From: a virus
Length of the DNA stretch: 49,440 nt
IMG/VR virus record: IMGVR_UViG_3300045988_127364
Location: 1-49,440 of that record
Strand: one strand, 5' to 3'
Shown in pieces: positions 6,261-46,326 of the stretch (positions are counted from its first letter, which is position 1; each line of letters starts with the position of its first letter). Below the pieces are notes generated by a model. It saw nothing but the letters and a program-made list of their open reading frames with translations, made no database searches and was not told where the DNA came from. The position numbers and the translations under genes were made by a program.

Positions 6261-6378
6261 TGAACGGTTATCGCCTATATCTATAAGGAGTGAAAAACGA
6301 TAAACGGCGATGATTGAACGGCTATAGCCTATATAGCCAACGATGAACGGTTAGAGCCTATATCTATAAGGAGGATCA
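6261..6378 (+). repeat. three direct repeats sharing a TGAACGG(T/C)TA..GCCTATAT core
   Basis: A at 6261-6290 and C at 6344-6374 are near-identical 30-bp repeats. B at 6314-6337 is a partial copy with the palindrome GGCTATAGCC. C supplies the AAGGAGG RBS for the ATG at 6385. Confidence 0.6.
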
Positions 6379-6384
6379 GCAGCT

Positions 6385-6681: not shown

Positions 6682-6745
6682 ACATAAAAACGGCCCGCGC
6701 GACGGTACTCGCACGGGCCACGGTACAGAATGGAGAACTGATACC

Positions 6746-7144: not shown

Positions 7145-7369
7145 ATGGGCCCCGTTCACACCGTTCCACTAGTTCCCAACGTTCGCGCGGCCGTATACGC
7201 CACGGCCGCGCCCGGCCGCTACCTAATAGCCGTCCAGGAGTGCCACGGCGGTATCTGGGAGACAGCAGGCGACGCCGGTACAACGTCGGTCGACCCGTTC
7301 GACGACGTTGCAATTTACTCAATCTGTTTTTTCATGTTCTCCGGCTACTGGGAGGATCAGAATGATTAA
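7145..7369 (+). CDS. hypothetical protein
   Basis: 74-aa ORF contiguous with its neighbours. Confidence 0.35.
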   Translation: MGPVHTVPLVPNVRAAVYATAAPGRYLIAVQECHGGIWETAGDAGTTSVDPFDDVAIYSICFFMFSGYWEDQND

Positions 7370-7925
7370 CACGTATCAGCTAACGCCGTTATACCGTGTC
7401 GCCGTCGATTACGACTGCGGCCCGCAGGACCCGCCGTCGCACCTGCTGGATACCGTTTTTTATGAGGTCGCATCATGCCAAAACCTCGACATACACGAGG
7501 GCACGCCCGCCGTTATCGCCGCGCTGGAGGGCGTCGAGGGGGCCGTCAACGATTACGATTACGACAGCGCCGACAGCGTCGCCGCAGCGCTTATAAAGCA
7601 CCTGGAGCGCCACGGCTATAAGGCCGTATACCGTACGTTTGCAGGCGTTTGCCCGTCTGACTGGTGCGACGCGGTCGCAGCTGTCCGCACCAGTGAGGGC
7701 GTAGCGCTCGACGCCGCCGTTAGTGACTGGGAGCGTTGGTTCGATAACGATTATTACGTCATAACGCTGCAGCGCCGCCACGTATGGCACGACGCCGCCG
7801 GGGATACCCTCGAAACGTGGGACGACGTCGACGCGCTGTACGGCGTCGCGCTTGACGACGCGTACAACTGCGACGAGGTGGCACGCGCCGCCCGTTACTA
7901 TTTCGACGTCGAGGAGGCGGCATAA
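7362..7925 (+). CDS. hypothetical acidic protein
   Basis: 187 aa from an ATG with GGGAGG RBS; highly acidic. Confidence 0.5.
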   Translation: MINTYQLTPLYRVAVDYDCGPQDPPSHLLDTVFYEVASCQNLDIHEGTPAVIAALEGVEGAVNDYDYDSADSVAAALIKHLERHGYKAVYRTFAGVCPSDWCDAVAAVRTSEGVALDAAVSDWERWFDNDYYVITLQRRHVWHDAAGDTLETWDDVDALYGVALDDAYNCDEVARAARYYFDVEEAA

Positions 7926-8038
7926 TGCTATTTGAGCTTGCCAAAACGTCAACCTGGTACGCGTACTGGTTAGGCGTTGCCGTTGGCGTTGCAGCGTGCG
8001 CCGTTGTCGCCGTCGTTTTTTCAATCCTCAATAACTAG
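7925..8038 (+). CDS. small hydrophobic peptide (37 aa)
   Basis: TAATG stop/start overlap with the upstream gene; single predicted TM helix. Too short for the ORF track. Confidence 0.3.
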   Translation: MLFELAKTSTWYAYWLGVAVGVAACAVVAVVFSILNN

Positions 8039-8050
8039 GAGGTGTAGCCC

Positions 8051-8143
8051 GTGCGAAACGTCTTTATCTACCTGCTAGCGTTGGCGTTGGCCCCCGTTAT
8101 CCTGCCCGTTATCGTTTTGGTTTTCCTACTCAAATACAACTAG
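8051..8143 (+). CDS. small hydrophobic peptide (30 aa, GTG start)
   Basis: GGAGGTG RBS; entirely hydrophobic; followed by a terminator. Confidence 0.3.
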   Translation: MRNVFIYLLALALAPVILPVIVLVFLLKYN

Positions 8144-8148
8144 CCAAA

Positions 8149-8178
8149 CGGTCCCGGCGTTTGTCGGGGCCGTTTTTT
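8149..8178 (+). terminator. rho-independent terminator of the plus-strand cassette
   Basis: cggtcccg-8 nt loop-cggggccg (one G:U pair) followed by TTTTTT. Confidence 0.55.
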
Positions 8179-8179
8179 A

Positions 8180-8720
8180 TGCCCTTGCAACGGCTCACGG
8201 CCTACACCGTGGGCCGTTTTTCGTTTCTGATCCTCGTTACCAGTGCCACGACCGCTCCTATATCCGCGCGTCGTTTGTGTTCAACCTATGGAGGCCGTCC
8301 ATACCGGGCAACGCTCGACGCCGGGCACAACGGGCCACGTTCTAGCCCGTTTCTAGGGCGATTCTAGCCCAGTTTTTACGCCCGTGGCACTGCTACCCCG
8401 CTCGCGTTTTTACGCCCGTTTTTGGGGCATTGTAGCGCCCCGTACGGGCATACCAGACGCGGCCCGTGCGCGCTGATATAGCAGGTCAAACCACCAAAAC
8501 GCCCGCGATCGGGCCAAAACTGCGGACACGGAAAACGGCCGTTCCCCAGCCAGTTTGCGCCATAGCCAGAAAGCCAGAACCAGAAAACCCTATAGTGCAC
8601 GCGAAAGTCGTGACAGTCGCGGCGCCCAGGCGGATTTTCCTCCCTTAGTGGCTGCGAAAGTCGTGACAGCCCTATAGTGGCCGCGAAAGTCGTTAGTGGC
8701 CCCGAAAGTCGCACAAAAAA
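8180..8720. repeat. non-coding iteron-rich region (candidate cos/pac or origin)
   Basis: No credible ORF. Direct repeats TTCTAG(C/G)(C/G)C x3 near 8340-8370; GTTTTTACGCCCGT x2; CCCTATAGTG..CGCGAAAGTCGT x2 plus two more GAAAGTCG copies; palindrome GCCCGTACGGGC. Confidence 0.5.
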
Positions 8721-19349: not shown

Positions 19350-20747
19350 CTATAGCCTGTCGACCGCCTCGATGCGCTCTCCCAGCCAGCGCATGACCGG
19401 AACAGCCATGCTGTTGCCGCACGCCTTGTAGCGCAGTGAGTCTGGGCACTCCTCGGCAGGCTTTCCCTTCCACGGGATTCTGGTGTGGTTGTCCGGGAAA
19501 CCCTGCAGCCGCTCGCACTCCAGCGGAGTCAGGCGGCGAACTACCGAGTTGATGCCGCTTTCTGCGGTCGTATTATCATTGATGTTGTGATAACCTGCGA
19601 TCGGCTCCGATTCGTCGGCGCCGCTGCCGTTCGCCGCTCCTTGGTGGTTCTTGAAAGCGACGACTGGCGGGTCTTTGCGGGTGTGGGCGCTGATCGTTCC
19701 AGCGATTTCATCGTCCACGCTCGTGTTCTTCTGCGTGTCAGTCATGCACACCAGGCTCTGGTTGTTTACCGTGCTGAGGGTGCCGCTGATTTCGTCCTGA
19801 ATCAAAGGTCCTTTGCCCCCCCCCTGGTTTGCCTGCCCTGTCTCGGATAAGCCAGCTGTGCATGTCTCACTCTCCTCGTACATAACCGCAGGATTGTGGT
19901 AGTCGGCAGTGAGTGTCGGTGACTGCTCCACAGCGGCTCCGATGCCGCCTGCCTTTGAGCATTGGTGGTACTTGAACGCCACCGCAGGACGGTCAATCGT
20001 CGTCAGGGTGTACATAGGCTCCCCAGGTTCTTGGAACCCCCACCCATTGCCGCCGTTCTCGGGCTTGCTCCCGATGATGTTTCCGGCGATCGAGAAGGTG
20101 TCATGCTGGCTATCGGGGTTTAGGCGTCCTGTTCCGCTACCTTGCGCAACGCTGCGTCCAGAAGCGGCGGCAACGGCTTTCCTCTTTTCTCGGCTCGATG
20201 GAGTATCCCAGCACATGCTTTCTGGCTCAAAGAGTACTTCGCAGGCGCGCGCGTCTCCAAGGTGTCCGACAAGAAAGAGACGTTCGCGCCTTTGGGCCAC
20301 GCCGAAGAACTGCGCGTCCAGTACTCGCCACGCCAAACCGTACCCGAGGGCATCCATTTCTCCGAGCAGCTGTCCGAAAGCCGCCCCCCCCTCACACGAG
20401 AGCGCTCCTTTGACGTTTTCCCACAGGAACCACCGAGGCATAAGCTCTTGAACACAACGTATGTACTCGAACATGAGTCCAGAAGCTCCCTTAAGACCTT
20501 CTCGCTTTCCTGCGATGGAGAAGGACTGGCAGGGACTTCCTCCGACCACAAGGTCAACTGCTCCATGAATCTCCTTTTTCCAATCTACTTTTGTGATGTC
20601 TCCGAGGTTCGGGACGTTCGGCCAGCGCTCGGCAAGTACAGCGCTCGGGAAGTCGTCTATCTCGCAGAACGCGAGCGGTTCCCATCCGAGCGGTTCCCAA
20701 GCGAGCGTCGCCGCCTCGACTCCCGAGAAGATGCTTACATATCGCAT
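19350..20747 (-). CDS. DNA (cytosine-5)-methyltransferase
   Basis: Motifs I (SIFSGVEAA), IV (GGSPCQSFSIAG), VI (FLWENVKG), VIII (QRRERLFLVG), IX (RRLTPLECERLQGFPD) and X (GNSMAVPV), with a large target-recognition domain between VIII and IX. Confidence 0.9.
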   Translation of the reverse strand: MRYVSIFSGVEAATLAWEPLGWEPLAFCEIDDFPSAVLAERWPNVPNLGDITKVDWKKEIHGAVDLVVGGSPCQSFSIAGKREGLKGASGLMFEYIRCVQELMPRWFLWENVKGALSCEGGAAFGQLLGEMDALGYGLAWRVLDAQFFGVAQRRERLFLVGHLGDARACEVLFEPESMCWDTPSSREKRKAVAAASGRSVAQGSGTGRLNPDSQHDTFSIAGNIIGSKPENGGNGWGFQEPGEPMYTLTTIDRPAVAFKYHQCSKAGGIGAAVEQSPTLTADYHNPAVMYEESETCTAGLSETGQANQGGGKGPLIQDEISGTLSTVNNQSLVCMTDTQKNTSVDDEIAGTISAHTRKDPPVVAFKNHQGAANGSGADESEPIAGYHNINDNTTAESGINSVVRRLTPLECERLQGFPDNHTRIPWKGKPAEECPDSLRYKACGNSMAVPVMRWLGERIEAVDRL

Positions 20748-20965
20748 TTGGCACCGGCCCAGAACATGCACGATCCATCGCATGGCGTGATGCTGTCGAT
20801 GATGCAGTCGATAAACTCTCCCGTTGAGAGCTGTTTGTTCTTGATGTTCAGCAGGTAGTTGTGCTGAGCAATGCGCTCGCACACGCCGTAGTATCCGCTG
20901 CTGAAATCGTCCCACTTGGCACAGCTTTGGCAGTCGCGCTTCATTTGAACCGACCTCCGATGCAA
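20735..20965 (-). CDS. hypothetical Cys-rich protein
   Basis: 76-aa ORF; start may be the internal ATG at 20944. Confidence 0.4.
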   Translation of the reverse strand: MHRRSVQMKRDCQSCAKWDDFSSGYYGVCERIAQHNYLLNIKNKQLSTGEFIDCIIDSITPCDGSCMFWAGAKCDM

Positions 20966-21042
20966 CCGATAACGGCAATCAAGATGAACAACACGACTAC
21001 GGGGGTGGCATATGCCGTTTCACGTTTACATGGAGCGGTCAT
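20941..21042 (-). CDS. small hydrophobic peptide (33 aa)
   Basis: GAGGGGGTGG RBS; ATGA overlap with the downstream gene. Confidence 0.25.
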   Translation of the reverse strand: MTAPCKRETAYATPVVVLFILIAVIGCIGGRFK

Positions 21043-22144
21043 GTCGCCACCCCCTCATGTTGGTCGCCTTGAGGTTCCAAATCGGCTTTAGGTGATGGAT
21101 GACCTCAACTGTCGGCTCGATAAGCCGCAATATCTCGTCGGCGCTCTTATATGCCTCAGGCGATTCGTCGAGCGTCGCTTCACAGGCGCTCGGGCAGTAG
21201 ATGCCAGCCTCTTTCATCTCTGATACAAACTTCTCGGTGTCCAAGTTGGCGCGTGCCTGCGCACGACTCATGACACGACCAGCGCCGTTGGGAGCGGACT
21301 CGTTCCAATCATTGTTGCCCTTACCGACGGCGATTACTGAGCCGTCGCGCATGTTGAACGGGATAAGGACCTTCTCGCCAGTGTGTGCGCTGATTGCGCC
21401 CTTGCGGATAACGTTGTCATCGGATATGTAGTTGTGCATCGTCTCGAATCGAGCGCTCAGGTCCAGCTTGATTCCAGTGCGTTCCTTAATCTGCTTGAGA
21501 ATGTGGAAACGGTTATCAGTAGCGTATCTCTGGCAGATACGCATGTCGTTGAGATATGCGCCTGCCGCAAAGCTCACGAGGTACTTGAGATCGCGAGGAA
21601 CATCTTCCTTGCACATTTCCTGCGCCATTGCCTGGTGATACTCGGCTACCTGTTTGCCCAGATTGCGAGAACCGGTGTGCACCACAAGATATTGATACCC
21701 ATACTCGTCCTCGTCGAGTTCAACGAAGTGGTTGCCGCCGCCCAGCGTGCCCATGGAGCACTCAATCCGCTCGACCCCTTTGAGATAGGCGTCATTCACA
21801 ACACCGTAGTCATTCTCAAGGCTGCATTTCGGCTCGTTGTGAACGCTGAACCCAGTTGGTACAGCTTTCTTCACGTCGCGGTTGAATTGAATCAAATCGT
21901 AGCGGTCGATACGCTCGTCGAGAGGGGCGCAGAGCATACCGCAACCGATGTCGACTCCGACCAGATTCGGAATAACCTTGTCGCCAAGGTTCGCTGTGAA
22001 CCCGATCACGCAACCCTTTCCGGCGTGGGCGTCGGGCATGATGCGAATCGTGGCACCCTCGAAAGCCGGACACGATGCAATCTCGTCAACCTGCTTCTTG
22101 GCGCTCTCCTCAAGATTCTCAGCGAAAATCTTTACATCTGCCAT
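21026..22144 (-). CDS. rtcB: RtcB-family RNA ligase
   Basis: IMPDAHAGKG, GGGNHFVEL, HTGSRNLG and MHNY motifs of the RtcB family. Confidence 0.9.
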   Translation of the reverse strand: MADVKIFAENLEESAKKQVDEIASCPAFEGATIRIMPDAHAGKGCVIGFTANLGDKVIPNLVGVDIGCGMLCAPLDERIDRYDLIQFNRDVKKAVPTGFSVHNEPKCSLENDYGVVNDAYLKGVERIECSMGTLGGGNHFVELDEDEYGYQYLVVHTGSRNLGKQVAEYHQAMAQEMCKEDVPRDLKYLVSFAAGAYLNDMRICQRYATDNRFHILKQIKERTGIKLDLSARFETMHNYISDDNVIRKGAISAHTGEKVLIPFNMRDGSVIAVGKGNNDWNESAPNGAGRVMSRAQARANLDTEKFVSEMKEAGIYCPSACEATLDESPEAYKSADEILRLIEPTVEVIHHLKPIWNLKATNMRGWRHDRSM

Positions 22145-29844: not shown

Positions 29845-30957
29845 ATGCCACGGAAACGCGCTGAGAGGGGTTCCATCGCCCGTTTAGACCGAAACCGTTA
29901 CAGGATTAGGTACTGGGGAGACAAGGGCGACGGAAAGGGCTACAGGCGCTTGAGCGCGAACTTCACCGGGACGCTGACAGAGGCGAGGGCAGAGCGCGAC
30001 AGGCTGATAGAGCTTCACTCGACCAGCCAGCGCACGCAGCATACGGTAAGGTACGTGTTCGACACGCTGTACTGGCCGTCATGTGAAAAGCGGCTGGCAG
30101 AGAACACGCTGAAAATGTACCGATCGACTTGGAGCAGGTACGTCAAGCCGAAGTTCGGCGGTTGCAAGCTAGGGGCAGTGAGGCCGCTGGAGATACAGAA
30201 GTGGCTCGACGGCATGACGAAGAACCAGGCGAGACGGTCGCTAAACATGCTGTCCAGTATCTACAAGACGGCAGTGAAGTACGAGCTTGCCGAGAGCGAC
30301 CCGACCTCGGTGGGCCTCACCGTTCCTGACACGATCAACGAGATGGATAAAGGAATATACGACCTCGCCGAGCTGATGCGAATGGCAGAGCTGCTGCGCG
30401 GCTCGTGCATGGAGGGCGTATTCCTTCTTTGCGCGTTCGGTTCATGCCGCCCGGGAGAGGCGCTTGCCGTTGACCCGGCGTCCGTCGAGCTGTTCAGAGC
30501 CGATAACGGGATGGCCTGCGCAGCCGTCCTCATTGAGCGTGAGGCGGTTCGCGGAATTATCGTCGATCGCACTAAGACTGACAGCAGCAAGCGCTATGTC
30601 GTCGTTCCCGGAAAGTGGGGCGAGCGTCTAGCCGAAGTCGCTGACGAGCGAATCGAGGGCGGACACAACTTGTTCATCGAGAGCATGAAGGGCGGGCCGC
30701 TGATTTCATCTAGCTTGAAGGTGAAATGGGAAAACGAGTCAAAGAGGCTCGGGTTTGCATACCACCCGCTGCGCAACCTAAGAAACTCTTGGCGAACCAG
30801 CTGGGAGTACGAAGTCAGGATACCTCCCGCAACGCTTGAAGTATTGATGGGCCACTCAGGGTCTGGAGTGTCCGCTAAGCACTATGTCCGCGCGAGTTTA
30901 ATGATGCTGGTGAACACGGTCGCCGACGCCTTCGCTTGCACCGGACTTGTTTCATAG
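29845..30957 (+). CDS. int: tyrosine integrase
   Basis: 370 aa; catalytic-region motifs HPLRNLRNSW (H-x-x-R) and MGHSGSGVSAKHY (Tyr). Confidence 0.9.
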   Translation: MPRKRAERGSIARLDRNRYRIRYWGDKGDGKGYRRLSANFTGTLTEARAERDRLIELHSTSQRTQHTVRYVFDTLYWPSCEKRLAENTLKMYRSTWSRYVKPKFGGCKLGAVRPLEIQKWLDGMTKNQARRSLNMLSSIYKTAVKYELAESDPTSVGLTVPDTINEMDKGIYDLAELMRMAELLRGSCMEGVFLLCAFGSCRPGEALAVDPASVELFRADNGMACAAVLIEREAVRGIIVDRTKTDSSKRYVVVPGKWGERLAEVADERIEGGHNLFIESMKGGPLISSSLKVKWENESKRLGFAYHPLRNLRNSWRTSWEYEVRIPPATLEVLMGHSGSGVSAKHYVRASLMMLVNTVADAFACTGLVS

Positions 30958-31342: not shown

Positions 31343-32299
31343 CTACTTCGCGTAGAGCTTGCGCCTGATGGCAACGGCGACAGCCTTGTTGGTGTCTGGT
31401 CCCTGCAAGCCGTCGGCGCCGCACGATCCGACCGAGATGCCATGCTCAATGAGCCACAGCTGGTGATGGATGATTGTCCCGCTGCCCATCTGCCTGCTTT
31501 GGATTCCCTTTGGTGGATACGTCTTGAGGCCAATCTTGTGCTGCAGTGCAAGCACCATGTCTGAGCCGACGCCCTTACCGGTCTTTGTCCACTCGACGCA
31601 GCTCTCCGTTGCCCAGAAAGAGCGCTGGTTGCACTCCCACTGGCCGGAAATCACACCGTCGACGGTGGTGCCGAGCTGCTTTTGAAGCGCTCGCGTGAAC
31701 TTGGGCCCCCAGTATCGCGTGTCACCCAAGTCGGGGTCTGTGTTGTCAGCAACCTCCGTGTTGGAGCCGCCGATGGTGCCGCCATCGCCGAGCCAGTACA
31801 GGGTCCCGTCCCACGGGTAGCTGTAATACGGCTTGATGTTGCTCTCTCGTCCGGTCTGGTCGCCCTTGGCGCCCGTGATGGTGCCCTTTTCGCTGATGCT
31901 GAACTGCGCAAGCAGGTCGCCGCGAGCGGAGCCGTAGGGCGAGATGCATACGGCCGTGTGGCAGCGCTTGTTGACGTAGATGTCTCCGCGCATGGCACTT
32001 GCAACGCCCATCTTGCGCCAACCGAAAAGACCAGTCTTGAGCAGCTGTTCGATCATGTTGCCCGTGTACGTCGCGCCGTACGTGTTGACGCCGACGGCCC
32101 TCAGCGCGAGGATGACTGCGGACGAGCAGTCTCGGTCGCCGCCAGCAACCGTAACGGTCGTGCCGTCAGAGAGCTTGATTGTCTCGGTGGTGCCGTCGCC
32201 CATCCTGTTGTACTGCGAGTAGCCGTGACCGCCGTTGCCGTCGTGGGTGACCATGTGCTCGAAAACCTGCGCGAACGCCTCGCGCCTGGTGAGCGCCAT
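31343..32299 (-). CDS. endolysin (peptidoglycan hydrolase with C-terminal cell-wall-binding repeats)
   Basis: 318 aa; two C-terminal repeats (..ALQKQLGTTVDGVISGQ.. and ..VLALQHKIGLKTYPPKG..); adjacent to the holin. Confidence 0.75.
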   Translation of the reverse strand: MALTRREAFAQVFEHMVTHDGNGGHGYSQYNRMGDGTTETIKLSDGTTVTVAGGDRDCSSAVILALRAVGVNTYGATYTGNMIEQLLKTGLFGWRKMGVASAMRGDIYVNKRCHTAVCISPYGSARGDLLAQFSISEKGTITGAKGDQTGRESNIKPYYSYPWDGTLYWLGDGGTIGGSNTEVADNTDPDLGDTRYWGPKFTRALQKQLGTTVDGVISGQWECNQRSFWATESCVEWTKTGKGVGSDMVLALQHKIGLKTYPPKGIQSRQMGSGTIIHHQLWLIEHGISVGSCGADGLQGPDTNKAVAVAIRRKLYAK

Positions 32300-32300
32300 T

Positions 32301-32564
32301 CTATTTGCCCTCAGCCGTGTACGGCTCGTCGTAGCCGAGCGCTCGAGCGGAATCGGACAGGCCGCTCGTGGTCGGGTCGGTCACCACGCCGAGAGCCACG
32401 AGGATGTTGAGGACGATGCCCACGAGCTGCAGGAGCGAGTCCTGCGAGACGGGCGGGACGATGCCGAAGATGCCGCAGAGCTGGTAGGCGAACGCGAGCA
32501 CGGTGGCGGCGAGGGCCGTGAGCGTGGCCTTGTTCTGCAGGCGAAGGGTCCAGTTGATTTTCAT
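32301..32564 (-). CDS. holin (phi LC3-family-like)
   Basis: 87 aa; MKINWTLRLQNKATLTALAATVLAF...TDPTTSGLSDSARALGYDEP. Confidence 0.7.
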   Translation of the reverse strand: MKINWTLRLQNKATLTALAATVLAFAYQLCGIFGIVPPVSQDSLLQLVGIVLNILVALGVVTDPTTSGLSDSARALGYDEPYTAEGK

Positions 32565-32574
32565 GTGTTACCTC

Positions 32575-32886
32575 CTAGTCGGAGCCGCCGACGCCACGGT
32601 GCATGTCGCAGTTGCGCTCCAGGCGCTCGATGCGCGCGAAAAGCGTCGAAATCTGCTCGGTGTGCTTTGCGATAGCAATGCCGTGGTCGTCGAGCTTTCG
32701 GTTGATTTCCTTGATTCCTGACGTGACCTCGCGCATCGACTCGATAAGTGAGTCGAGCTTGTCGTCGGTGTGCTGCTCCTTCGCGGAGCGCGTCTTGGTT
32801 ACGCTGAGCCGCCCGACGCAGAACGTCACGATGACGAAGAAAGCGCTGATGATGGAGGTCGTGTCGCTGACACTCACGGGCGGCAC
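32575..32886 (-). CDS. membrane/coiled-coil protein (possible XhlA-like lysis accessory)
   Basis: 103 aa; N-terminal TM helix then coiled coil; position between the XkdX-like gene and the holin. Confidence 0.35.
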   Translation of the reverse strand: MPPVSVSDTTSIISAFFVIVTFCVGRLSVTKTRSAKEQHTDDKLDSLIESMREVTSGIKEINRKLDDHGIAIAKHTEQISTLFARIERLERNCDMHRGVGGSD

Positions 32887-32996
32887 TAATCCTCCTTGCG
32901 GTTGGCGGCGTCAAGCAGCGCCTGCACCTCTTTGCGCCAGCGCTCGGGGACGCTGTCGATGGTGCGCTTGCCTTTATTCACGGCACGGAAGAACAT
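32886..32996 (-). CDS. XkdX-like small protein (36 aa)
   Basis: MFFRAVNKGKRTIDSVPERWRKEVQALLDAANRKED; position upstream of the lysis genes; too short for the ORF track. Confidence 0.3.
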   Translation of the reverse strand: MFFRAVNKGKRTIDSVPERWRKEVQALLDAANRKED

Positions 32997-33016
32997 CTCC
33001 GCGATAGCACTAGCCA

Positions 33017-33367
33017 CTACTGCTCACCTCCCGCAATCATGTCGCAAATCTCGAGGATTGCCGCGTCATGGATGGCGCTCGTCTCCTCGCATTTCTCGAC
33101 GCGCTCGGCGATCGTCGCATCGTCGTTGACATGCGAATCCCAGAGAGCGTCGAAGCTGTCGGTGATTTCGGCCACGGACGGAGTTCCAGCGACCTTGAAG
33201 TACAGCTCCTCTGCGCTGTAGAACTCGTAACCGGACCCGAGGCCGTTGTCAGCGGTGTCCTTCACGATGTCTCGGCGAAGCCAGACGTGGGAGTAGGGAG
33301 CGCCGTCATCATGCTCGATGCTCACTGCATCGAGCGGGGTGGCAGAGATTGTTTTCACTGCGCTCAT
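33017..33367 (-). CDS. acidic hypothetical protein downstream of the DGR reverse transcriptase
   Basis: 117 aa from an ATG with AAAGGTGGA RBS. Confidence 0.45.
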   Translation of the reverse strand: MSAVKTISATPLDAVSIEHDDGAPYSHVWLRRDIVKDTADNGLGSGYEFYSAEELYFKVAGTPSVAEITDSFDALWDSHVNDDATIAERVEKCEETSAIHDAAILEICDMIAGGEQ

Positions 33368-34451
33368 GCGTCCACCTTTCTTTTCGGGTGTTGTCAGCAT
33401 GAGCATGTGCCGATACGTGTTTCCGCGCGTGCCGGAACGTGGCATCGTATCCGTTTTTCTGCCTCGCCTTGTGCGAGTCCGAGTGCTCCAGGTATCCCCA
33501 GTAGGAACAGACCCTCTTGGCTCCGCGCAGCGTCGGCCTTCGGTCGTAGTCACTGTACGCTTTCCTTATTCTGAGGTACAGGTCGGGCTTTATCGTGACC
33601 CTGCTCGGCCTTACGCTGTTGCTGAGAGCGGCACACGGCTCCTGCTCGCCAGACCTCGCCACCTTCCAGCCCTTGAACTCCAGGCCGTAACCTTCTTTGA
33701 AATACGTACCGAGCGTCCTGACCGCAAGCTCCATGTCGCGCTTGCAGTTGCCGAAGATGAAAAGGTCATCTGCGTACCAGCACTGGTGCTCGATAAGCCT
33801 GACGCTCCTGCCGCGCCTTGTCTTATGTGCGTCCTCCAGGAAGTGGTAGCCGAACGACAGCACGAGCTGTGCCATGCGCAGCGAGAAGTAGCTGCCAATT
33901 TCCAGGCACCCGTCATAGGAGTCGAGCAGGCAGTCGCACAGGTAAAGGACGTCGGCGCTCTTTATGTACTTGCGGAGTATCGACTTGACCACATCGGTCT
34001 TAATGGACGGGTAGCACTTTCGCACATCGACATGCACATGGTACTTGCTGTCGCGCAGATACATCTGGCAGGCGCCGACGAGCATCGGCTGGCCCTTGCC
34101 CATCACGCTTGCCGTCTGCCAGTAGCCCACCTTGGCATCAAGGAGAGGCGCGAGAGCCGTGACCGCGAGGTAGTCGCATGTCTGCTGCTTGACGCTCTCG
34201 ATGCCGATGATGCGCAGCTTGCCGTTGGTAGTCTCGATGTGCCTGTAGCGCCTGATCGGTACGAACGACAGCGACCTCGACTCAATCTCGAATGCGATCT
34301 CGCTGATTAACGCCGACTCGGTGCCGTATTCTTCACACACGCGCCAGCGGTTCTTCTTGCCAGCCTCTCCGCACAGCCAAGTATCGTATGCGGCATGAAT
34401 TAGGGACTCGTCTATGCGGAGTCCCTTGCAGTAGCTTTTTATATAGACCAA
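33309..34451 (-). CDS. DGR-type reverse transcriptase
   Basis: RT motifs HVHVDVRKCYPSI (motif 2, ..SI), IGSYFSLRMAQ (motif 4-like) and QCWYADDLFIFG (motif 5, YADD). TTG start with purine-rich RBS. Located 150 bp from the template repeat. Confidence 0.75.
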   Translation of the reverse strand: MVYIKSYCKGLRIDESLIHAAYDTWLCGEAGKKNRWRVCEEYGTESALISEIAFEIESRSLSFVPIRRYRHIETTNGKLRIIGIESVKQQTCDYLAVTALAPLLDAKVGYWQTASVMGKGQPMLVGACQMYLRDSKYHVHVDVRKCYPSIKTDVVKSILRKYIKSADVLYLCDCLLDSYDGCLEIGSYFSLRMAQLVLSFGYHFLEDAHKTRRGRSVRLIEHQCWYADDLFIFGNCKRDMELAVRTLGTYFKEGYGLEFKGWKVARSGEQEPCAALSNSVRPSRVTIKPDLYLRIRKAYSDYDRRPTLRGAKRVCSYWGYLEHSDSHKARQKNGYDATFRHARKHVSAHAHADNTRKERWTHERSENNLCHPARCSEHRA

Positions 34452-34604
34452 ATCTCTTTCTGGGTGTCACACGAGCAGTCGCCTTGAGGTTACTAGCCCG
34501 TCGGTCTTTTTGACGATTTCACTTAGTTAAGCTAGGCCGATGCCCATCTCGTCCCAGAAGGACGGAGGGTAGTCGCGGATGGAGAAGATGTTGAAAGAGT
34601 AGTC

Positions 34605-34705
34605 CCAGATTGACGCGAGCCGTAGTTCCACCTGGCGTTCGACAGGTCGTTGTTGCCATTGACGTAGCGAAGGCCAGCATAGCCCCTGTTCCTGAGGTTG
34701 CCGAG
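34605..34705 (-). repeat. DGR template repeat (TR)
   Basis: About 101-bp non-coding copy of the 3' end of the receptor-binding gene. It differs from the VR almost only where TR has A on the coding strand. Confidence 0.75.
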
Positions 34706-34801
34706 AAGGAAAGATACGCCCCGTATTCCGCGAATCCCTATTTTCGAGTTCCGATAGTTGCAGAGCTGATTGTAGCATGTGCTACGGACAGCCGAAGTGA
34801 G

Positions 34802-34824
34802 AAAGAGGGGGCTTTTCGCCCCCT
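34802..34824 (-). ncRNA. GC-rich hairpin immediately 3' of the VR (DGR target-recognition hairpin candidate; alternatively a weak terminator)
   Basis: Minus strand AGAGGGGGC-GAAAA-GCCCCCTCT: 9-bp stem, 5-nt loop, beginning 8 nt after the target gene stop. Confidence 0.5.
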
Positions 34825-34832
34825 CTCGACGG

Positions 34833-36413
34833 CTATGCAGCCGCCGATTCACCCCCGGACTGACCGTTGCCAGAAAGACGCGAGCCGCTGCGCCACCAGG
34901 CGTACGACAGGCCGCTGCCGCCACCGACGCAGCGAAGGCCAGCACAGCCCCCGTCCCGGAGGTCGCCGATAGTAAGGCTCTCGCGAGTTCCCGTGACCGT
35001 GTCGGCGTTCTTGTAGACGCCGTCGCACAATCCCGTGGTATCCGACGCTCCGGAGCCGACATGCACCATGGCACCGTTGACGGTCTTGTCGTACAGCGAG
35101 TACTTCCAGCCCTCGGTAGCATCGCCGGGCATATCACCGACGACGACGGCGTTCGCCGGGATGATTCCTGGCTTGTCGTCGGCAGTGCTCTTTGACGCGT
35201 AGATCTTCCAGCCGCCGCCGTCGTTCTTGTACGCGACGTCCTCGATAATCTCGTACATGCCGTGGCCAAGCTCGATACCCTGGATGGTGAACGGCTCACG
35301 GCCGCTCTTGGGGTCGGTGGGCGAGCCGTCTCCAGCGAGTCCGTCGCAGGCTCCCGTGTGCCATGGGCACGTGGAGACGATCATGCCGACCTCGGTTGTG
35401 ATTGGGCCGCAGTCGAGCGTGAGCACGCAGTTGTCCCCGTCGACGGACTTGGAGACGATTCTGGCGGCATCGACGATGTCATGCGCGTTGGTTGCGCCGC
35501 GATCGGGGCTGGCGGTCTTTACGGAGCCGACCATGACCGAGGAGCCGACGGGCCAAGCGGAGACGGAGGACGCGGCGACCGTGACCGTGCTGACGTTCTC
35601 GCCCGCGACGGTGATTGCGGGCTGCTCAGTATGCGCGGTGCATCCGGCAAAAACGCTCTGCGAGTTCTTGGTCGCGTACTTGAGGTCGAACATCCAAAGC
35701 ACGTACATGTGGTCGTAGCGCGACTTGCCGGAATACTGCGCGCCCTTCTTGCGTGTCAACGTGATGACGCTGTCATGGCTAATGAAGCGCTTGACCGGTC
35801 GCTTGGAGATGGATGCCGTGTTGCCAGCGTCATCGATTACGAGCGGGTACTTCGCTCGCAGGATGAACTGTCGCCTATGCTTTCGGTCCGTGAGTCCGTC
35901 AGGCTCAATCGTGTAGCCAGTGGTCTGCGAGTCGCTTACCCAGCGCTGGATGGTGGACTCGCCCTCGACCTCGCGCATGTAGAGCGTCGGGGTCATAATC
36001 CAGACGTCGCCGTTGGAGCCGTCTCGCGCGAAGCGTCCGTCGCCGTTGATTGCGGTGACGTGAGGCTTGCCGACTGCGTCGTAGAAGCCGTTCACCTCCC
36101 AGTAGCGGAACGGCCCGATGCCGAGGTACGGGTCGTTTCCGGCCTTGGCGAACGTGTAGGGCGTAGGCGCGTCGTACTTCGCGTTCTCGCCGAGCTTGGT
36201 TCCCTCGACGGTCTTTCCGGTGGATAACTCGACTCCGTAGGTGAGTCCGTCGCAGCCGGATTCGATCATCGCGGCAACCGATGCGTCGGTGTACCTGTCG
36301 CTGTCATCGTCGAATACGGGTCGCTTGTTGTTCGCTAGCAACTGAATCGACATGGCGATGTCGCCAAGCCCCTCCTTAAGTGTCTCGTCGCTGGCGATGT
36401 GGGTCTTTGCCAT
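34833..36413 (-). CDS. receptor-binding tail fibre protein (DGR target)
   Basis: 526 aa; last structural gene of the tail operon; C-terminal about 45 aa is the VR. Confidence 0.7.
   Translation of the reverse strand: MAKTHIASDETLKEGLGDIAMSIQLLANNKRPVFDDDSDRYTDASVAAMIESGCDGLTYGVELSTGKTVEGTKLGENAKYDAPTPYTFAKAGNDPYLGIGPFRYWEVNGFYDAVGKPHVTAINGDGRFARDGSNGDVWIMTPTLYMREVEGESTIQRWVSDSQTTGYTIEPDGLTDRKHRRQFILRAKYPLVIDDAGNTASISKRPVKRFISHDSVITLTRKKGAQYSGKSRYDHMYVLWMFDLKYATKNSQSVFAGCTAHTEQPAITVAGENVSTVTVAASSVSAWPVGSSVMVGSVKTASPDRGATNAHDIVDAARIVSKSVDGDNCVLTLDCGPITTEVGMIVSTCPWHTGACDGLAGDGSPTDPKSGREPFTIQGIELGHGMYEIIEDVAYKNDGGGWKIYASKSTADDKPGIIPANAVVVGDMPGDATEGWKYSLYDKTVNGAMVHVGSGASDTTGLCDGVYKNADTVTGTRESLTIGDLRDGGCAGLRCVGGGSGLSYAWWRSGSRLSGNGQSGGESAAA
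34870..34970 (-). repeat. DGR variable repeat (VR) at the C-terminus of the receptor-binding protein gene
   Basis: Encodes ..SLTIGDLRDGGCAGLRCVGGGSGLSYAWWRSGSRLSG..; homologous to the TR at 34605-34705. Confidence 0.75.
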
Positions 36414-37150
36414 TAGCTTTCCTCCGTGTCAACTAGGGTCAGGTACTGCGTGTCGCCGACCGTGTCGTAGGTTATGTAGATTTTCTTGTCAGCCGAGATT
36501 GAGCCGCGTGCCTCTTCGGCGGCTTTCAGCGCATCGGTCTTTGCCTGCTCGGCGCCTGCGGCGGCGTTCGATGCCGTGACGGACGAGTCGTTAGCGGAGC
36601 CAGCGGCGGCGTTCGCCTTGCCAGCTGCCTCGTTCGCCGCAGACGCGGCCTTTTCTGCCCTGTCCTTCGACGCGTCAACGGAGGCTGCAGCCGTGTTCGC
36701 CTTTGTTGCGGCGGCGTCGGCCTTCTTGACTGCGGACTCGGCGTTGGTGGCGGCAGTCTTAGACCTCTCGACCGCGTCGGCGCTCTCCTTCTTGACCTGC
36801 TCGAACTTATTGGCAATCTCAAGCTCCGAGTCGGCATAGCTCTGCCTCAGAAGCTCGAGCTGCTTATGCTCCTCGTCGACCCTTCCAATCGCGTCGTCTG
36901 CGCGCTTGGCAGCATCGGTGGCAGGCCGCATCAGGCCAGCAATCTGCTCCTCCGTGAAGTCTCCGTACACGAACGCGTCGCCCTTGAGCGCGACGATTTT
37001 CCAGCTTGCGCTGGGAGGCTGCTCGGTAGTCGGCGAGACGCACATGTAGGAGCTGCCGCCGTGGGACACGACATCGAGTTTGTCGTAGCTGTTCCCGTTC
37101 TGCCACTCGCCTCGGTGGATTACGGCGATTCGCCCAAGGTCTTTAATCAT
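36413..37150 (-). CDS. tail fibre protein with Ala-rich coiled coil
   Basis: 245 aa with a long A/K/E coiled-coil segment; directly upstream of the receptor-binding protein. Confidence 0.5.
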   Translation of the reverse strand: MIKDLGRIAVIHRGEWQNGNSYDKLDVVSHGGSSYMCVSPTTEQPPSASWKIVALKGDAFVYGDFTEEQIAGLMRPATDAAKRADDAIGRVDEEHKQLELLRQSYADSELEIANKFEQVKKESADAVERSKTAATNAESAVKKADAAATKANTAAASVDASKDRAEKAASAANEAAGKANAAAGSANDSSVTASNAAAGAEQAKTDALKAAEEARGSISADKKIYITYDTVGDTQYLTLVDTEES

Positions 37151-41238: not shown

Positions 41239-44200
41239 CTACTCCAAACTCACCACGCCTCGACGCGCGAGGCTTTCGTTTCCCTTGACGACAGCACGGG
41301 CAAGGTCCTCGTTGCCGACTCGCAGGACGATGGTGGTGTCTCCACCACCGTTGACCTGCTGGCCGCCGAGCTGACCCGTGGTCATCGCGGACTGCACCAT
41401 GGCCTTGGTCATGGCGCTAACCGCAGTCTCAGTCTCGAAGGTTGTCGGGTAACCCTCGTGCGAGGTATAGCGGCTGGACGAGCCGTCGAACGTCGATGCC
41501 GAGGTCGAGCGTGCAAGGTTCTCGGAGTCCTGCAGCATCGACGCCACCTTCGAGCCGTCGAAGCCGTCGCCAATCGCGTTGCCGTATGCCTTGCCGACGT
41601 TCTTTCCGAACTTGGCCGCCTCCTCGGTGGCGTCGAGGGATTCTGCGGTCATATCGGCAACAGCATTGGAAACGGACTTGGCGCTGTCTGAGATGCCGAT
41701 AGCGAAGCCCTCTCCGAAGTAGCCGCCGATTTCCATCGTCACTCGGGACGGAGAGTGGATTCGCAGCTTACGGCGCATCCTGTTGGCCGCGTTTGTCGCA
41801 ATGGCCTCTGCGGTGTTGTAGATGGTCCAGCGAGTGCTCCACAGGCCGTCGTCGAATCCGTAACCGACATACCTTCCGGCGTTCTCATACCATCCTCGGT
41901 AGTCACGCAGACCGTACTCGCCGGATGCAGCTACCGAGTGTGCCGCAGAACGTGCGTTGACTCCCCTGAGTCCGTTTACGAAACTGTTTCCGAGCGCCCT
42001 ACCAGAGCTGCTGGCCGTTCCGTTGCCGTTGCGCAAAGCGTTGGCGGCCCTGTTTGATGCGCTCGATGCCGCCGACACAGCGCCTCCGGCTGCATTTGAC
42101 AATCCGCTCCTGTAGCTGTTCATGACTGCCGTTCCGGCGCTATGGGCAGTTCCAGTGCCGGATCGGAAAGCGGACACGACCCTGCTGCTCACGCCTCGTG
42201 CTGCGTTTGCGGCAGACGCTGCTCCAGCACTGATGCCGTCGCCGTAGCCGCCGGACATGTTCTTGCCTGCGGACTTCGCCTTGGTGTAGCCAGTGCCGCC
42301 GTTGAATCCGGTGACGGCCTTGTCGCGCACGCCCTCGGCCTTCGACTTGACGTTCGCGGCACCGTCGTTGATGCCGTTGGCGAAGCTATCGACCATCGTC
42401 TTGCCGCTGGTCTTAGCCTGGTTCTTAGCGGAACCGAACTCCTTGGCCGTAGCCTCTGAGGTTTTCTTGGCCTCGGACTTGGTGTTCTCCTTCTCGGATT
42501 TCACGCCGTCCGTGGCGCCTTTGGCGTTCTTCTTACCAGCAGCGTTGGACTTGGTGGAGCCAGCACCGAGAACGTCGGCGAACGAGTCTGTACCGGAGTT
42601 CGCTGCGTCCTCGAGTTGCTGGATGAACTGCTTGGACTGCGCACTGGTCGGGTTGTTGACGACTTCCTGCAGCGCCGTCGCCATCTTCTCGGGTCCCGCG
42701 TCGCGCAGTGCCTGAACCATGGAGCTGTTCATGCTCCAGCCCGTAATGGAGCAGAGCTGAATCAGGTTGTCGGACCACTGCTGCTGCACGGCGAGGTTGT
42801 TGGCGAGGTTGTTGTTGACCGTCTCGAGCGACATGCTCGAACCGGTCTCGATGGCGTCGAAGCTGTTGATGGTTTTCTGTGAGAAGCTGTCAATCTGCTG
42901 CGCGACGTCGTCGAACGTCTGCCCGGTGTCCGCGAGGTGCTGCGCGAACTCCTGCTCGGAGAACCCGGCCATGGCGAGCGCGTCTTTCAGGTTGTTGTGC
43001 GACTTCTCGTATTCCCTGATGGAATCGACGTTGTTCTTGACCTGCTGCTCCTCCTCGGACAGGACCTCGTTGGCCTGCTTTGTGGAGTCGGTCGCCTGCC
43101 CGGTGGCGTCGTTCAGGCCGAAGAAGCCTAGTACGGCGTTTCCGATGCCGTCGATGATTGGCTGCAGCAGGGACAGGATGCCACTGAGGGCGGCGACAAA
43201 CACCATGCCTGGGAACGCGGCGATAGCGGCGTTCAGCAGGCCCTGCGCGACCGCTCCAGCCGTCTTTGCAACTGTCATCGCAGTCTCGGCTACGGTCATC
43301 GCTCCAGTTGCGACGGTGCTCGCGCCTAGCTTGGCCGTGTTCGCAGCCACCTCAGCGCCAGCCTTGAGTTCGGCGGCGGCCATCTTGCCAGCGCCCGCAA
43401 CGGTCTTGTCCTGACTGGCCGCGTAGTCCATAGCGGCCAGCTTAGCGGAGTTCAGCTTGTCCTTGGACTGCTCCAAGGCAAGATTGCTCTCAGCAGTCTT
43501 TACGCGCATCGACTGAGTCTTGACGCCAAGTTTCTCGGCGTATGTCGCATTCTCGCCGAGAGCGGAACGGGCCTCGTTCAGCTTGGTTCGCTCGTTGGCG
43601 AGCGCATCCGCGGCGTTTGCCGTAACAGTCTTGGCGTGCTCCGTCGCCTTTGCGGCGAGTTCGGTCTTGTCCCTCGAGATTCCGAGAGCGGACGCGAGCT
43701 TGCCAAGACCCTCCTTGGCACCCTCAGCGCCAGACTTGAGGTTCGACTTGAGGTCGGTCGAGAGCAACCTGACCTTACCGGAGGACTCTGCGGACTTGCC
43801 GCTGATGATTCCGGCCATGGCGCTGAAAGCGGAACCGATTCCCTGCAGCCCCTTGGCGATGCCGTTGGTGACGGCGAGCGCGGTCAGCGCGGCACCGAGC
43901 ATCGTCGCTGCGACGCGAGCGGCCTCGCTGTTGACCAGCAGCTCGAGCATCACCTGCAGGACGGCGTTGATTGCCTGGAAAGCGGCGGCGGCAGTCGTGA
44001 ACGCAACGTCGGCGACAGCCTCCGCGAGATGCAGGACGAGCGTCGCGCCGATGCCTGCGGCCTGACCGAGCTTGCCCAAGGCGTCGACGTTTCGCATGAA
44101 CCAGTCCTGCCAGCTCTGCAGTACGTCGATGCACAGGTAGATGGCTCCGCGCAGCTTGTCGCCAATCCATGCAACCAACTGGATTAGCGCTGTGTCGGTA

Positions 44201-46326
44201 AATCCCTTGATCATGGTGCCGACGCCGTTTATCGCGGAGGACAGCGTCAGGCACATCTGGGCCGCGAGGTCGAACGACAGCGCGATTGTCTCGGGGAAGT
44301 TGAACGCGACGATGAGCGGCCCGATGATTTCGATGAGCTGTCGAACCGTGTTGCTGATAAGGTTCGCCACGCCAGCTATCTCGTTCTTGACGGCGCCGAC
44401 GATGTCGAGTCCGTCGAACTGGTGCTGGATTGCCTTTGCGAGGACCTTGAAGTCGTCGACGAGCGGCTGGAAAGCCTTGCCGATGCGGTTCAGCATGTCC
44501 ATTATCTCGTCGTACAGCTTGTCGGTCAGCCCGTCGCCCAGTGCCCAGTCGTAGTCATCGAGTTTGATGTCGGAGATGTTCGGGGCCCCGCCGCCACCGC
44601 CTGCGCCGCCGCCACCGCCGCCGCCCGAGCTGCCAGTGCCGGAGCCGCTGAAGGTCTCGTTGAACTTGTTGATTTCGTCGAAGCCCATGAGCTGGCGCTT
44701 AAGTTCCTCGACCTGCTTTGCGGCCTTTCCGGCCTTATTGCCAGCGCCTCCGGCGGCGTTACCGGCGTTGCCGATGGCGTCTGCGGCGTCATCCGCTGCG
44801 GCGGCCGTGCCCTCGTATGCGCCACCGTCACCGAAGCCCATGTTGGCGATGGCGGTGCCGCCAGTCACCTTGGCGAGCAGGTTAGCGAGGGTCGCCACGG
44901 CCTTAACGACCGCGACGGCCACCGGGATGATGGCCTGCAGCATCGGCAGGAACACGTTGCCGATCGCCTGCGCGGCGGTCTGCATCTGGCTCTTGAGGAT
45001 TCGGATTTGGTTGGCGGGTGACGCTGCGGTCTTTGCGAGGTCTCCGTGTGCCCAGCTGACCTGCGACATTATCGCCTTGTAGCGCAGCATGGCCTTCTCG
45101 GCCTGCGTCATCTTCGACACCTGCCCGCTGAGGCCCATGTTGTAGGCCTCCTGCTGCAGGCGCGCGGTGGTCAGGTCGTAGCCCAGCGCTCGCAGCGGCT
45201 CAATCTCTCCGGCAAGACCGGAACGGACCTTCTCGAACGCCTCGTCGTTGCTGATGTTGAAGAAGGACGCGAGGTCGTAGGACAGCTGAGTGAGTCCCTT
45301 GGACATGGTGTACGCGTTATTGGCCGCGACGCCCATGCCCTGCGCCATGGTCATGAACGTGCCCTGGTTTTTCAGGAACTCGCCCGAGTTGATGCCTAGC
45401 GCGGCCTGCACCGCGTTTGCGTACTCGTGCGCGGTGGCGGCGTACTGGCCGAGGGACGTGTCGGCGAGGTTGATGTTTTCGATATAGCGGTTGGACTGGT
45501 CGACGCAGTAGGCGATGCCCTGCCCGACCTTGTAGAAGGTCGACGCGACGGTCGCCACGGCGCGGATGACCGATGCCGAGGTGCGCAGCTTTGAGATGAA
45601 GCTGTCAAGAGAGGACTCGGCCTGCTTGGTGCCGCTGGCCGTGCTCGCGCCGAAGCTCTTGGACGCGCTCTTTATCGTCCTGAAACCGGATGCGACGCTC
45701 GCGAACTTCTCCGGGAGCTTGCCCAGCGAGTCGTTGATCGCATCGCAGGCGGCGCGGAAGGACGTCATGTCCATCTTGTCGAGAGATGCGGCAAGCTCAG
45801 GGAGCCTCTTGAGTGCGTTTACCGTGCTGCCGAGGTTTGACCTCGGCAGTGCGCTCAGCTCCGCGAGCGAGGTATACAGGCTATGGAACTTGGTCGCGTC
45901 GAAGCTGACCTGATTCATCTCCGCGACAGAAGCGGCGATTTTCCTGATTTGGTTGGCGATGCTGGAGGACAGCTTGAGTCCGCTAAGCGAGCGGACGGAG
46001 TTGACCGTCTCGCGCACCTGAGCGGAACTGTTCATCTGCGAGGTGGCCGCCGCGATAGCGGAGACATTCTTCGCCACGGTAGATGAAATCTTGACGCCCT
46101 GCAGCTGCCGCACGGCGTCGGCGATCGCGGCGACGTTCTTGCTGTCAACGCGAGCGGACGACAGCCTTGAGATACCGTCCGCAACCTTCGACAGCGACGT
46201 GCCGACGCCGCGAGTTCCCGTCTTGAGTTCTTTTACGTCATCGGCTAGGCCTCTGACGGCGCTACGGGCGTTGTCCGCCTTGGTCTCGATAGAGATTCGC
46301 AGCTGGTCGATGCTGGCTTCTGCCAC
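41239..46326 (-). CDS. tape measure protein
   Basis: 1695 aa, Ala/Gly-rich with a Gly run GGGGGGAGGGGGAP; follows the tail chaperone genes. Confidence 0.9.
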   Translation of the reverse strand: MAEASIDQLRISIETKADNARSAVRGLADDVKELKTGTRGVGTSLSKVADGISRLSSARVDSKNVAAIADAVRQLQGVKISSTVAKNVSAIAAATSQMNSSAQVRETVNSVRSLSGLKLSSSIANQIRKIAASVAEMNQVSFDATKFHSLYTSLAELSALPRSNLGSTVNALKRLPELAASLDKMDMTSFRAACDAINDSLGKLPEKFASVASGFRTIKSASKSFGASTASGTKQAESSLDSFISKLRTSASVIRAVATVASTFYKVGQGIAYCVDQSNRYIENINLADTSLGQYAATAHEYANAVQAALGINSGEFLKNQGTFMTMAQGMGVAANNAYTMSKGLTQLSYDLASFFNISNDEAFEKVRSGLAGEIEPLRALGYDLTTARLQQEAYNMGLSGQVSKMTQAEKAMLRYKAIMSQVSWAHGDLAKTAASPANQIRILKSQMQTAAQAIGNVFLPMLQAIIPVAVAVVKAVATLANLLAKVTGGTAIANMGFGDGGAYEGTAAAADDAADAIGNAGNAAGGAGNKAGKAAKQVEELKRQLMGFDEINKFNETFSGSGTGSSGGGGGGGAGGGGGAPNISDIKLDDYDWALGDGLTDKLYDEIMDMLNRIGKAFQPLVDDFKVLAKAIQHQFDGLDIVGAVKNEIAGVANLISNTVRQLIEIIGPLIVAFNFPETIALSFDLAAQMCLTLSSAINGVGTMIKGFTDTALIQLVAWIGDKLRGAIYLCIDVLQSWQDWFMRNVDALGKLGQAAGIGATLVLHLAEAVADVAFTTAAAAFQAINAVLQVMLELLVNSEAARVAATMLGAALTALAVTNGIAKGLQGIGSAFSAMAGIISGKSAESSGKVRLLSTDLKSNLKSGAEGAKEGLGKLASALGISRDKTELAAKATEHAKTVTANAADALANERTKLNEARSALGENATYAEKLGVKTQSMRVKTAESNLALEQSKDKLNSAKLAAMDYAASQDKTVAGAGKMAAAELKAGAEVAANTAKLGASTVATGAMTVAETAMTVAKTAGAVAQGLLNAAIAAFPGMVFVAALSGILSLLQPIIDGIGNAVLGFFGLNDATGQATDSTKQANEVLSEEEQQVKNNVDSIREYEKSHNNLKDALAMAGFSEQEFAQHLADTGQTFDDVAQQIDSFSQKTINSFDAIETGSSMSLETVNNNLANNLAVQQQWSDNLIQLCSITGWSMNSSMVQALRDAGPEKMATALQEVVNNPTSAQSKQFIQQLEDAANSGTDSFADVLGAGSTKSNAAGKKNAKGATDGVKSEKENTKSEAKKTSEATAKEFGSAKNQAKTSGKTMVDSFANGINDGAANVKSKAEGVRDKAVTGFNGGTGYTKAKSAGKNMSGGYGDGISAGAASAANAARGVSSRVVSAFRSGTGTAHSAGTAVMNSYRSGLSNAAGGAVSAASSASNRAANALRNGNGTASSSGRALGNSFVNGLRGVNARSAAHSVAASGEYGLRDYRGWYENAGRYVGYGFDDGLWSTRWTIYNTAEAIATNAANRMRRKLRIHSPSRVTMEIGGYFGEGFAIGISDSAKSVSNAVADMTAESLDATEEAAKFGKNVGKAYGNAIGDGFDGSKVASMLQDSENLARSTSASTFDGSSSRYTSHEGYPTTFETETAVSAMTKAMVQSAMTTGQLGGQQVNGGGDTTIVLRVGNEDLARAVVKGNESLARRGVVSLE

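Follow-up and report, generated by a model that had tools for sequence, protein, structure and literature searches.

The 49,440-bp virus record IMGVR_UViG_3300045988_127364, analysed here at its full length and referred to below as the window, very probably carries an active-type, accessory-less diversity-generating retroelement (DGR), made up of target gene, template repeat (TR) and reverse transcriptase (RT), in a temperate siphophage of Collinsella. A DGR had been proposed at this position from the DNA letters. That original prediction is supported by the adenine bias of the mismatches between TR and the variable repeat (VR), by the profile of the RT, by VR variation in relatives and by a C-type-lectin model of the target. 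The core features are the following.

34833..36413, minus strand: gene for the 526-aa DGR target, a distal tail protein or putative receptor-binding protein; C-type-lectin fold in its C-terminal half
34870..34970, minus strand: VR, codons 482-515 of the 526-codon open reading frame (ORF), from alignment and counts
34605..34705, minus strand: TR, non-coding, from alignment and counts against VR
33309..34451, minus strand: DGR RT, 380 aa, TTG start; YADD at 33776-33765, IGSYFSL at 33899-33879, CYPSI present

Template and variable repeats

TR (34705..34605) and VR (34970..34870) were aligned along the minus strand with the offset fixed at 265 nt. The alignment contains 21 mismatches in 101 positions, 19 of which fall on a TR adenine (A>G 13, A>T 4, A>C 2), and 19 of the 23 TR adenines are substituted in VR (Fisher exact p = 1.0e-14). 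The counts in the original prediction were reproduced exactly on recount, and the adenine bias holds when the substitutions are tabulated by TR base (p = 1e-14). The two non-adenine mismatches had been placed at the repeat edges; this is correct for 34705 (C>A, 5′ edge), but 34624 (T>A) is internal.

The final two TR adenines (34611-34610, 'CAATCTGG') are TT in the VR of the window phage and of three relatives, and so probably lie beyond the transferred region. Restricting the comparison to 34704-34612 (93 nt) leaves 18 mismatches, 17 of them at A, with 17 of 21 adenines changed (p = 6e-14); all 21 of these adenines occupy codon position 1 or 2. The rewritten part of VR appears, from the alignment, to span approximately 34877-34969. 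Read in the VR frame, TR encodes LGNLRNRGYAGLRYVNGNNDLSNARWNYGSRQS and is rich in AAC codons, a design typical of DGR templates. With TR adenines treated as wildcards, no second VR-like copy of TR was found on either strand of the window, where only TR itself and the known VR matched.

Comparison with three related loci (L001–L003), whose RTs are 86-92% identical to the window RT, revealed near-identical TRs accompanied by different VRs. The VRs of these four phages differ at 18 TR-adenine columns. A further six non-adenine columns also differ among them, and at four of these six TR itself differs between the phages, with the change present in the cognate VR. Across relatives TR is nearly invariant (1-3 changes), and the copying of TR changes into their own VRs is the signature to be expected from TR-to-VR transfer.

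Hypervariability was counted in 15 proteins of the target's cluster at an identity of at least 90%. Of the 34 VR codons, 17 are variable, each with at most 8 alleles; in the rest of the protein, 71 of 492 codons vary. The variable VR codons coincide with adenine-containing TR codons except at S503 and A505, and the TR codon for A505 holds only a window-specific A. The VR variation that had been suggested as a check is therefore seen in near-identical relatives, at TR-adenine codons for all but two of the 17.

Reverse transcriptase and Avd-less layout

The RT starts 153 nt downstream of the TR end and has at least 341 protein relatives. A family profile built from 31 of them was searched against the PDB, where it matched 8ub7 over nearly its full length (1.6e-15, 60 bits), compared with 35 bits for a group II maturase and 33 bits for a chain named 'retron-type reverse transcriptase'. 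Entry 8ub7, a 328-aa 'Reverse transcriptase', is taken here to be the Bordetella DGR RT (bRT) on the grounds of its length and of the motifs IGSLTSQ and YMDD. The profile thus prefers bRT over group II and retron RTs by 25 bits, which answers the question of RT class raised with the original prediction. The predicted YADD and SI motifs are also present, the former at RT residues 226-229 and the latter within CYPSI. Correspondingly, phrog_1423 ('reverse transcriptase') matches the protein at 1.9e-35. The window is also deposited as a TPA Caudoviricetes contig, where the RT carries the annotation 'hypothetical protein'.

Residues Arg80 and Ile185 are invariant in the RT family and align with bRT residues Arg74 and Ile181, which promote adenine mutagenesis (PMC7826257). 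In DGR RTs the signature motif [I/V/L]GxxxSQ replaces QGxxxSP (PMC7826257). The equivalent motif in the window RT is IGSYFSL; its I, G and S are invariant in the 31 family members, and its last residue is L or M, never Q, in contrast with Gln187 in the bRT of Bordetella phage BPP-1. As the bRT mutation Q187P left the misincorporation frequency unchanged (PMC7826257), the L/M ending is treated as a variant rather than a disqualifier. The window RT is also approximately 30-50 aa longer than BPP-1 bRT and has a basic C-terminal tail. At its N-terminus (34437-34451, minus strand), most family members start at ATG-AAA (MKSYCK), whereas the window RT and its closest relatives open at TTG (MVYIKSYCK).

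The layout of the element was surveyed by an A-tolerant diagonal search of the window and 86 related loci, which were drawn from IMG/VR, genome bins and metagenomes and whose RTs are as little as approximately 30% identical. The order VR, a gap of approximately 100-230 nt, TR (approximately 105-115 nt), a spacer of approximately 150-220 nt and RT recurs in 72 of the 79 loci having upstream DNA. Each of these 72 loci has 6-21 adenine mismatches and at most two non-adenine mismatches.

This recurrence bears on whether the two repeats might be an ordinary duplication or gene-conversion tract lying beside an RT from an unrelated group II intron, retron or defence system. The best NCBIfam match of the RT, a group II RT/maturase model, would suit such an origin; it is weak, at 35.7 bits against a cutoff of 300, and the retron St85 model scores 15.6 bits against a cutoff of 235. 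An origin of this kind has next to no probability, given an adenine specificity (p = 1e-14) that recurs independently in the 72 loci and a bRT profile match 25 bits above any group II or retron RT. Pfam and NCBIfam scans found no maturase or endonuclease domain in the RT, and no Rfam family, group II intron and retron RNA included, matches the TR-spacer region at E <= 1.

The accessory protein Avd is a basic four-helix-bundle protein of approximately 120-130 aa. The VR-to-TR gap, 164 nt in the window, leaves no room for an avd gene there at only approximately 100-230 nt across the family. A Pfam scan of the window's 61 small ORFs gave no match to the Avd family (presumably PF05635) among the 25 families listed, the best 25 of 32. 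The absence of an obvious Avd homologue between VR and RT, remarked on in the original prediction, is therefore real and family-wide.

The compact Avd-less arrangement is Architecture A of Wu et al. (2018), already known, and the window DGR is thus an example of a described design; according to the survey text, Architecture A, which lacks an accessory gene, makes up 29% of their set (PMC5758913). The window fits Architecture A1, with a TR-RT core, an adjacent target and no Avd, HRDC or MSL gene, subject to the caveat of an acidic neighbour that is assigned below to the tail module. Going by the same text, the resemblance to Architecture A1 and the Avd-lacking Lineage 3 extends to a target immediately upstream of the TR-RT core without Avd, HRDC or MSL (PMC5758913), as well as to phage association, a single target and one or no non-adenine substitution (PMC5758913). 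The RNA scaffold described below and the IGSxFS[L/M] motif are found here and go unreported in the survey text (PMC5758913). Together with the family-wide cis-element map, the covariation-supported scaffold and the motif appear to go beyond the published texts consulted.

Similarly, clade 2 of the Eggerthella lenta prophage DGRs comes from the same class, Coriobacteriia, with a virion gene that carries VR at its 3′ end (PMC8778435). Its TR is reported 'within the ert gene' and no avd is drawn (PMC8778435); set side by side by description, this looks like the same arrangement, in the host genus Eggerthella rather than Collinsella (PMC8778435). In P0028 and P0047 of the present family, gene callers carry the RT ORF upstream through the spacer and TR. 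Because gene callers extend RT ORFs in this way, TR can seem to lie 'inside the RT gene', translated as an N-terminal extension, and the artefact can hide the architecture. The BPP-1 element (mtd-avd-TR-brt) differs in having avd, whereas the window DGR has no avd gene. No DNA-level relatives were found among GenBank phages by megablast.

Tail-protein target and structured RNA

The variable domain of the target models as a C-type-lectin fold, typical of DGR targets, and the variable region accordingly sits within that fold in the model. The target ORF matches phrog_17147 and a tail PHROG, the identical protein at NCBI is named 'tail collar fiber protein', and some homologues carry an N-terminal PF10651 domain, presumably the BppU baseplate domain. 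The target gene comes after a gene of tape-measure size (41239-46326), the gene for a 991-aa tail protein and that for a fibre-like 245-aa protein; the lysis genes lie beyond it. The original prediction had named the target a receptor-binding tail fibre. Gene position, PHROG matches and fold are what this name is drawn from, and the role is putative. Compared with TaqVP, the Thermus aquaticus DGR variable protein (PDB 5vf4), the target is just 14% identical; TaqVP is a cellular protein, whereas the target belongs to a phage tail module and carries an additional N-terminal domain.

Two features lie at or beyond the 3′ end of VR, and two more make up the RNA around TR.

34869..34886, minus strand: VR 3′ boundary; G+C-rich block GGCTCGCGTC common to TR and VR, followed by TTTCTGGC in VR and AATCTGGG in TR
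34804..34826, minus strand: hairpin AGAGGGGGC-GAAAA-GCCCCCTCT, 9 bp, starting 7 nt past the target stop and approximately 44 nt past VR
34727..34738, minus strand: upstream RNA segment GGGAUUCGCGGA, predicted to pair with spacer 34579-34567
34452..34604, minus strand: structured spacer RNA from TR to RT, from covariation in a 12-locus alignment

VR ends 37 nt before the target stop codon. The TT that follows GGCTCGCGTC is invariant in four related VRs and AA is kept in TR. By analogy with the initiation of mutagenic homing (IMH) site of Bordetella, the divergence after GGCTCGCGTC is a candidate for the IMH/IMH* distinction. The hairpin past the stop codon has a DNA fold z of -6.0, and most high-GC relatives have a G+C-rich hairpin with differing stem sequences at the equivalent position. 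A terminator scan did not call it a canonical terminator, as a T-run is absent. By analogy, it fits either a target-recognition hairpin as known from Bordetella or a terminator.

The RNA was examined in alignments of 12-14 diverse loci, running from upstream of TR to the RT start, using RNAalifold on 12 loci and pair counts. A predicted duplex brackets TR, in which 34738-34736 and 34732-34727 pair with spacer positions 34579-34574 (UCCGCG) and 34569-34567 (CCC). In its 6-pair helix, four pairs have compensatory changes and 94% of cells are paired. The TR 3′ end UCUGGG (34609-34604) pairs with CCCAGA (34464-34459) just 5′ of the RT start and crosses the bracket duplex; this spacer strand ends 7 nt before the TTG start. 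Two local elements also lie in the spacer, a hairpin (34532-34521) and a stem-loop (34501-34471). In the alignment of 12 loci, the structure pairs 95.6% of cells, and compensatory changes are seen at 13 of its 30 pairs. Slid controls paired at no more than 36-46%, and the observed values were not reached in any of 500 shuffles.

The covariation thus supports a folded RNA around TR, similar to that of the Bordetella DGR. In the cryo-EM structure of the Bordetella ribonucleoprotein, a duplex between avd and the spacer (Sp) brackets TR (bioRxiv 10.1101/2023.10.23.563531), and a TR:Sp template:primer duplex ends at the priming A56, paired to U118 (bioRxiv 10.1101/2023.10.23.563531). In BPP-1 the bracket duplex takes its upstream strand from the 3′ end of avd, whereas here this strand is non-coding. 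The TR duplex also uses a different part of the spacer, its far 3′ end beside the RT start instead of Sp 47-56. By analogy, the likeness suggests the same self-primed mechanism without Avd, in which the A at 34459, paired with U34609, would be the predicted priming nucleotide.

Several observations weigh against an intact, currently diversifying and Avd-free element. The RVT_1 match to the RT is 25 bits, under the gathering threshold of 29.6, and the signature motif ends in L rather than Q. The RT opens at the upstream TTG because the family ATG is ATA here, the mismatch at 34624 is both internal and outside the adenines, and neither a sigma-70-type promoter for a TR-RT transcript nor a canonical terminator was found around TR. 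A very divergent Avd or a host-encoded helper may escape hidden Markov model (HMM) searches, Avd proteins being poorly conserved. The receptor-binding role of the target is drawn from gene position, PHROG matches and fold, and current activity of the window copy is presumed from sequence comparison.

The TTG start, the internal mismatch and the lack of a promoter would also suit a decayed or fossil DGR, in which the TR/VR pattern records past activity of the lineage and the window copy no longer diversifies. Such decay is improbable in view of an intact RT ORF with every family-invariant residue, an intact TR and RNA helices that are preserved in the window's own sequence. P0001, P0002 and P0010, moreover, share the TTG-start form, as does an 86-sequence cluster with close relatives that differ in their VRs. 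An active-type DGR is the preferred reading.

Directly upstream of the target, and overlapping its start codon with its own stop, is the gene for the 245-aa protein (36413-37150, minus strand). This protein has a weak N-terminal match to the carbohydrate-binding module CBM_5_12 (9e-5, below threshold) and an alanine-rich coiled-coil that matches several tail-fibre PHROGs.

The acidic neighbour, the phage and a proposed mechanism

One further ORF follows the RT.

33017..33367, minus strand: small acidic protein, 116 aa, isoelectric point (pI) 4.17, overlapping the RT 3′ end by 59 nt

Read along the minus strand, the elements come in the order target (36413..34833), hairpin (34826..34804), TR (34705..34605), RT (34451..33309) and acidic ORF (33367..33017). 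This order agrees with the original prediction. The implication that the acidic protein is a DGR component is probably incorrect, given the DGR-less relatives described below.

An acidic homologue directly follows the RT in all 59 high-GC loci and in four more loci found with an HMM. In the low-GC subgroup, proteins of the same size with a pI of 4.1-4.6 follow the RT and align with the others. When contexts were found independently of the RT, the acidic gene was directly 3′ of an RT in nine of ten, namely in three GenBank phage records and in P0213, P0206, P0186, P0223, P0195 and P0191. The RT-independent contexts include a 176-kb phage record and low-GC phages with an RT only approximately 30% identical. 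In the tenth context, the abundant P0166 (48% identical to the L090 copy) directly follows a 769-aa tail protein, with no RT or TR within 8.4 kb. This tail protein and the DGR target of L090 share 60% identity from end to end, the VR-like C-terminus included. The acidic gene therefore tracks the tail gene and not the RT. From this gene context, it is most likely that the acidic protein is a neighbour in the tail module, for example an assembly factor or partner of the tail protein, rather than part of the DGR.

The relatives L093, L094 and L095 (1710-4444) are DGR-less, with the tail protein followed by the acidic protein and no TR or RT; either the cassette was lost or it has not yet been inserted. 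An 'A-biased repeat' in L093–L095 was rejected as a false positive, as it sits in tandem coiled-coil repeats of the tail gene.

Alternatively, the acidic protein might replace Avd functionally, making a three-gene DGR with a new accessory protein. This would be in line with a homologue directly 3′ of the RT, usually overlapping, in all RT-selected loci and in nine of ten RT-independent contexts. It would also recall the small acidic accessory gene CH1, which according to the text of Wu et al. occurs only in Avd-less DGRs (PMC5758913). In that text CH1, of Architecture E, encodes 160-169 aa with a pI of approximately 4.7 and is conserved beside the RT (PMC5758913). Replacement of Avd is nevertheless unlikely. 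CH1 is larger than the 116-aa protein here and is reported from Bacteroides relatives, and P0166 lies beside a tail gene without RT or TR. The pI of 4.17 is furthermore unlike that of the RNA-binding Avd, and the acidic-protein model contains a beta-sheet plus a helix, with no four-helix bundle and no PDB relative. The alignment of the acidic proteins has no conserved stretch.

Between the acidic gene and the holin are ORFs of 43 aa (32886-33017, minus strand) and 103 aa (32575-32886, minus strand; transmembrane segment and coiled-coil). The equivalent small ORF in low-GC relatives has a weak match to PF23792 (CD1375-like). The small genes after the acidic gene are ordered much like those behind the tail-fibre genes of Firmicutes prophages.

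At 49,440 bp, the window is the complete genome of a temperate phage. It is regarded as a circularly permuted whole genome because the head and tail genes run across the contig ends on the minus strand (capsid at 54-1091, tail genes to 49349). The capsid, portal and terminase genes occupy 54-5136, the integrase 29845-30957, and the endolysin and holin 31343-32564. The RNase J gene that adjoins related prophages is identical to that of Collinsella, and members of the target and acidic-protein clusters are annotated as Collinsella aerofaciens. By these sequence matches, the window phage is a temperate siphophage of gut Collinsella. Collinsella is among the genera with DGRs in Roux et al. (bioRxiv 10.1101/2020.04.01.020958).

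In the prophages L001 and L002, RNase J and FtsK follow the endolysin, where the window has the integrase region. Elsewhere in the window, an RtcB-type RNA ligase (21026-22144, minus strand; PF01139, 7e-63) lies beside a C5 cytosine DNA methylase (19350-20978, minus strand; PF00145, 3.5e-56); these could serve in counter-defence by RNA repair and anti-restriction, respectively. Immediately upstream of the large terminase is the gene for a serine recombinase with a resolvase domain and a helix-turn-helix (5148-5744, minus strand; 4e-36), which may be an invertase or else resemble a small terminase. A search of 4800-8600 gave no convincing inverted repeats.

It is proposed that a transcript of approximately 34740-34452 would fold as the covariation indicates, such that the upstream:spacer duplex brackets TR and the TR 3′ end pairs beside the RT start; the role of this fold is putative. 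The RT would then copy TR into cDNA, misincorporating opposite adenines, as the A-specific mismatches imply. By analogy with the Bordetella phage, the cDNA would replace VR at the 3′ end of the tail-protein gene, with a 3′ limit near GGCTCGCGTC, and the hairpin past the stop codon may help this replacement. The outcome would be variation at up to approximately 17-21 codon positions on the ligand-binding face of the modelled C-type-lectin domain, which presumably alters receptor specificity. No Avd would be involved, and the acidic protein most likely serves the tail protein rather than reverse transcription.

Another gut prophage that diversifies a tail-tip lectin domain is expected and not surprising. 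No natural system of protein diversification is more extreme than DGRs, and directed-evolution tools are being developed from them, at present on the basis of the Bordetella RT-Avd pair. About one quarter of DGRs are Avd-less, and how reverse transcription is primed and positioned in these is the question on which the present element bears. As it is compact, has many relatives in a cultivable gut genus, and has mapped cis elements and a covarying fold, Avd-independent reverse transcription becomes directly testable.

The RT clade comprises at least 341 proteins, from phages of Coriobacteriia and of low-GC, apparently Firmicutes hosts. It is conceivable, as a tentative proposal that falls somewhat short of an even chance, that this clade carries out self-primed, adenine-mutagenic reverse transcription with the RT and a structured RNA alone. 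If so, the upstream:spacer and TR:spacer duplexes and the basic RT tail would do the positioning job of Avd, and the element would be a natural two-component minimal DGR.

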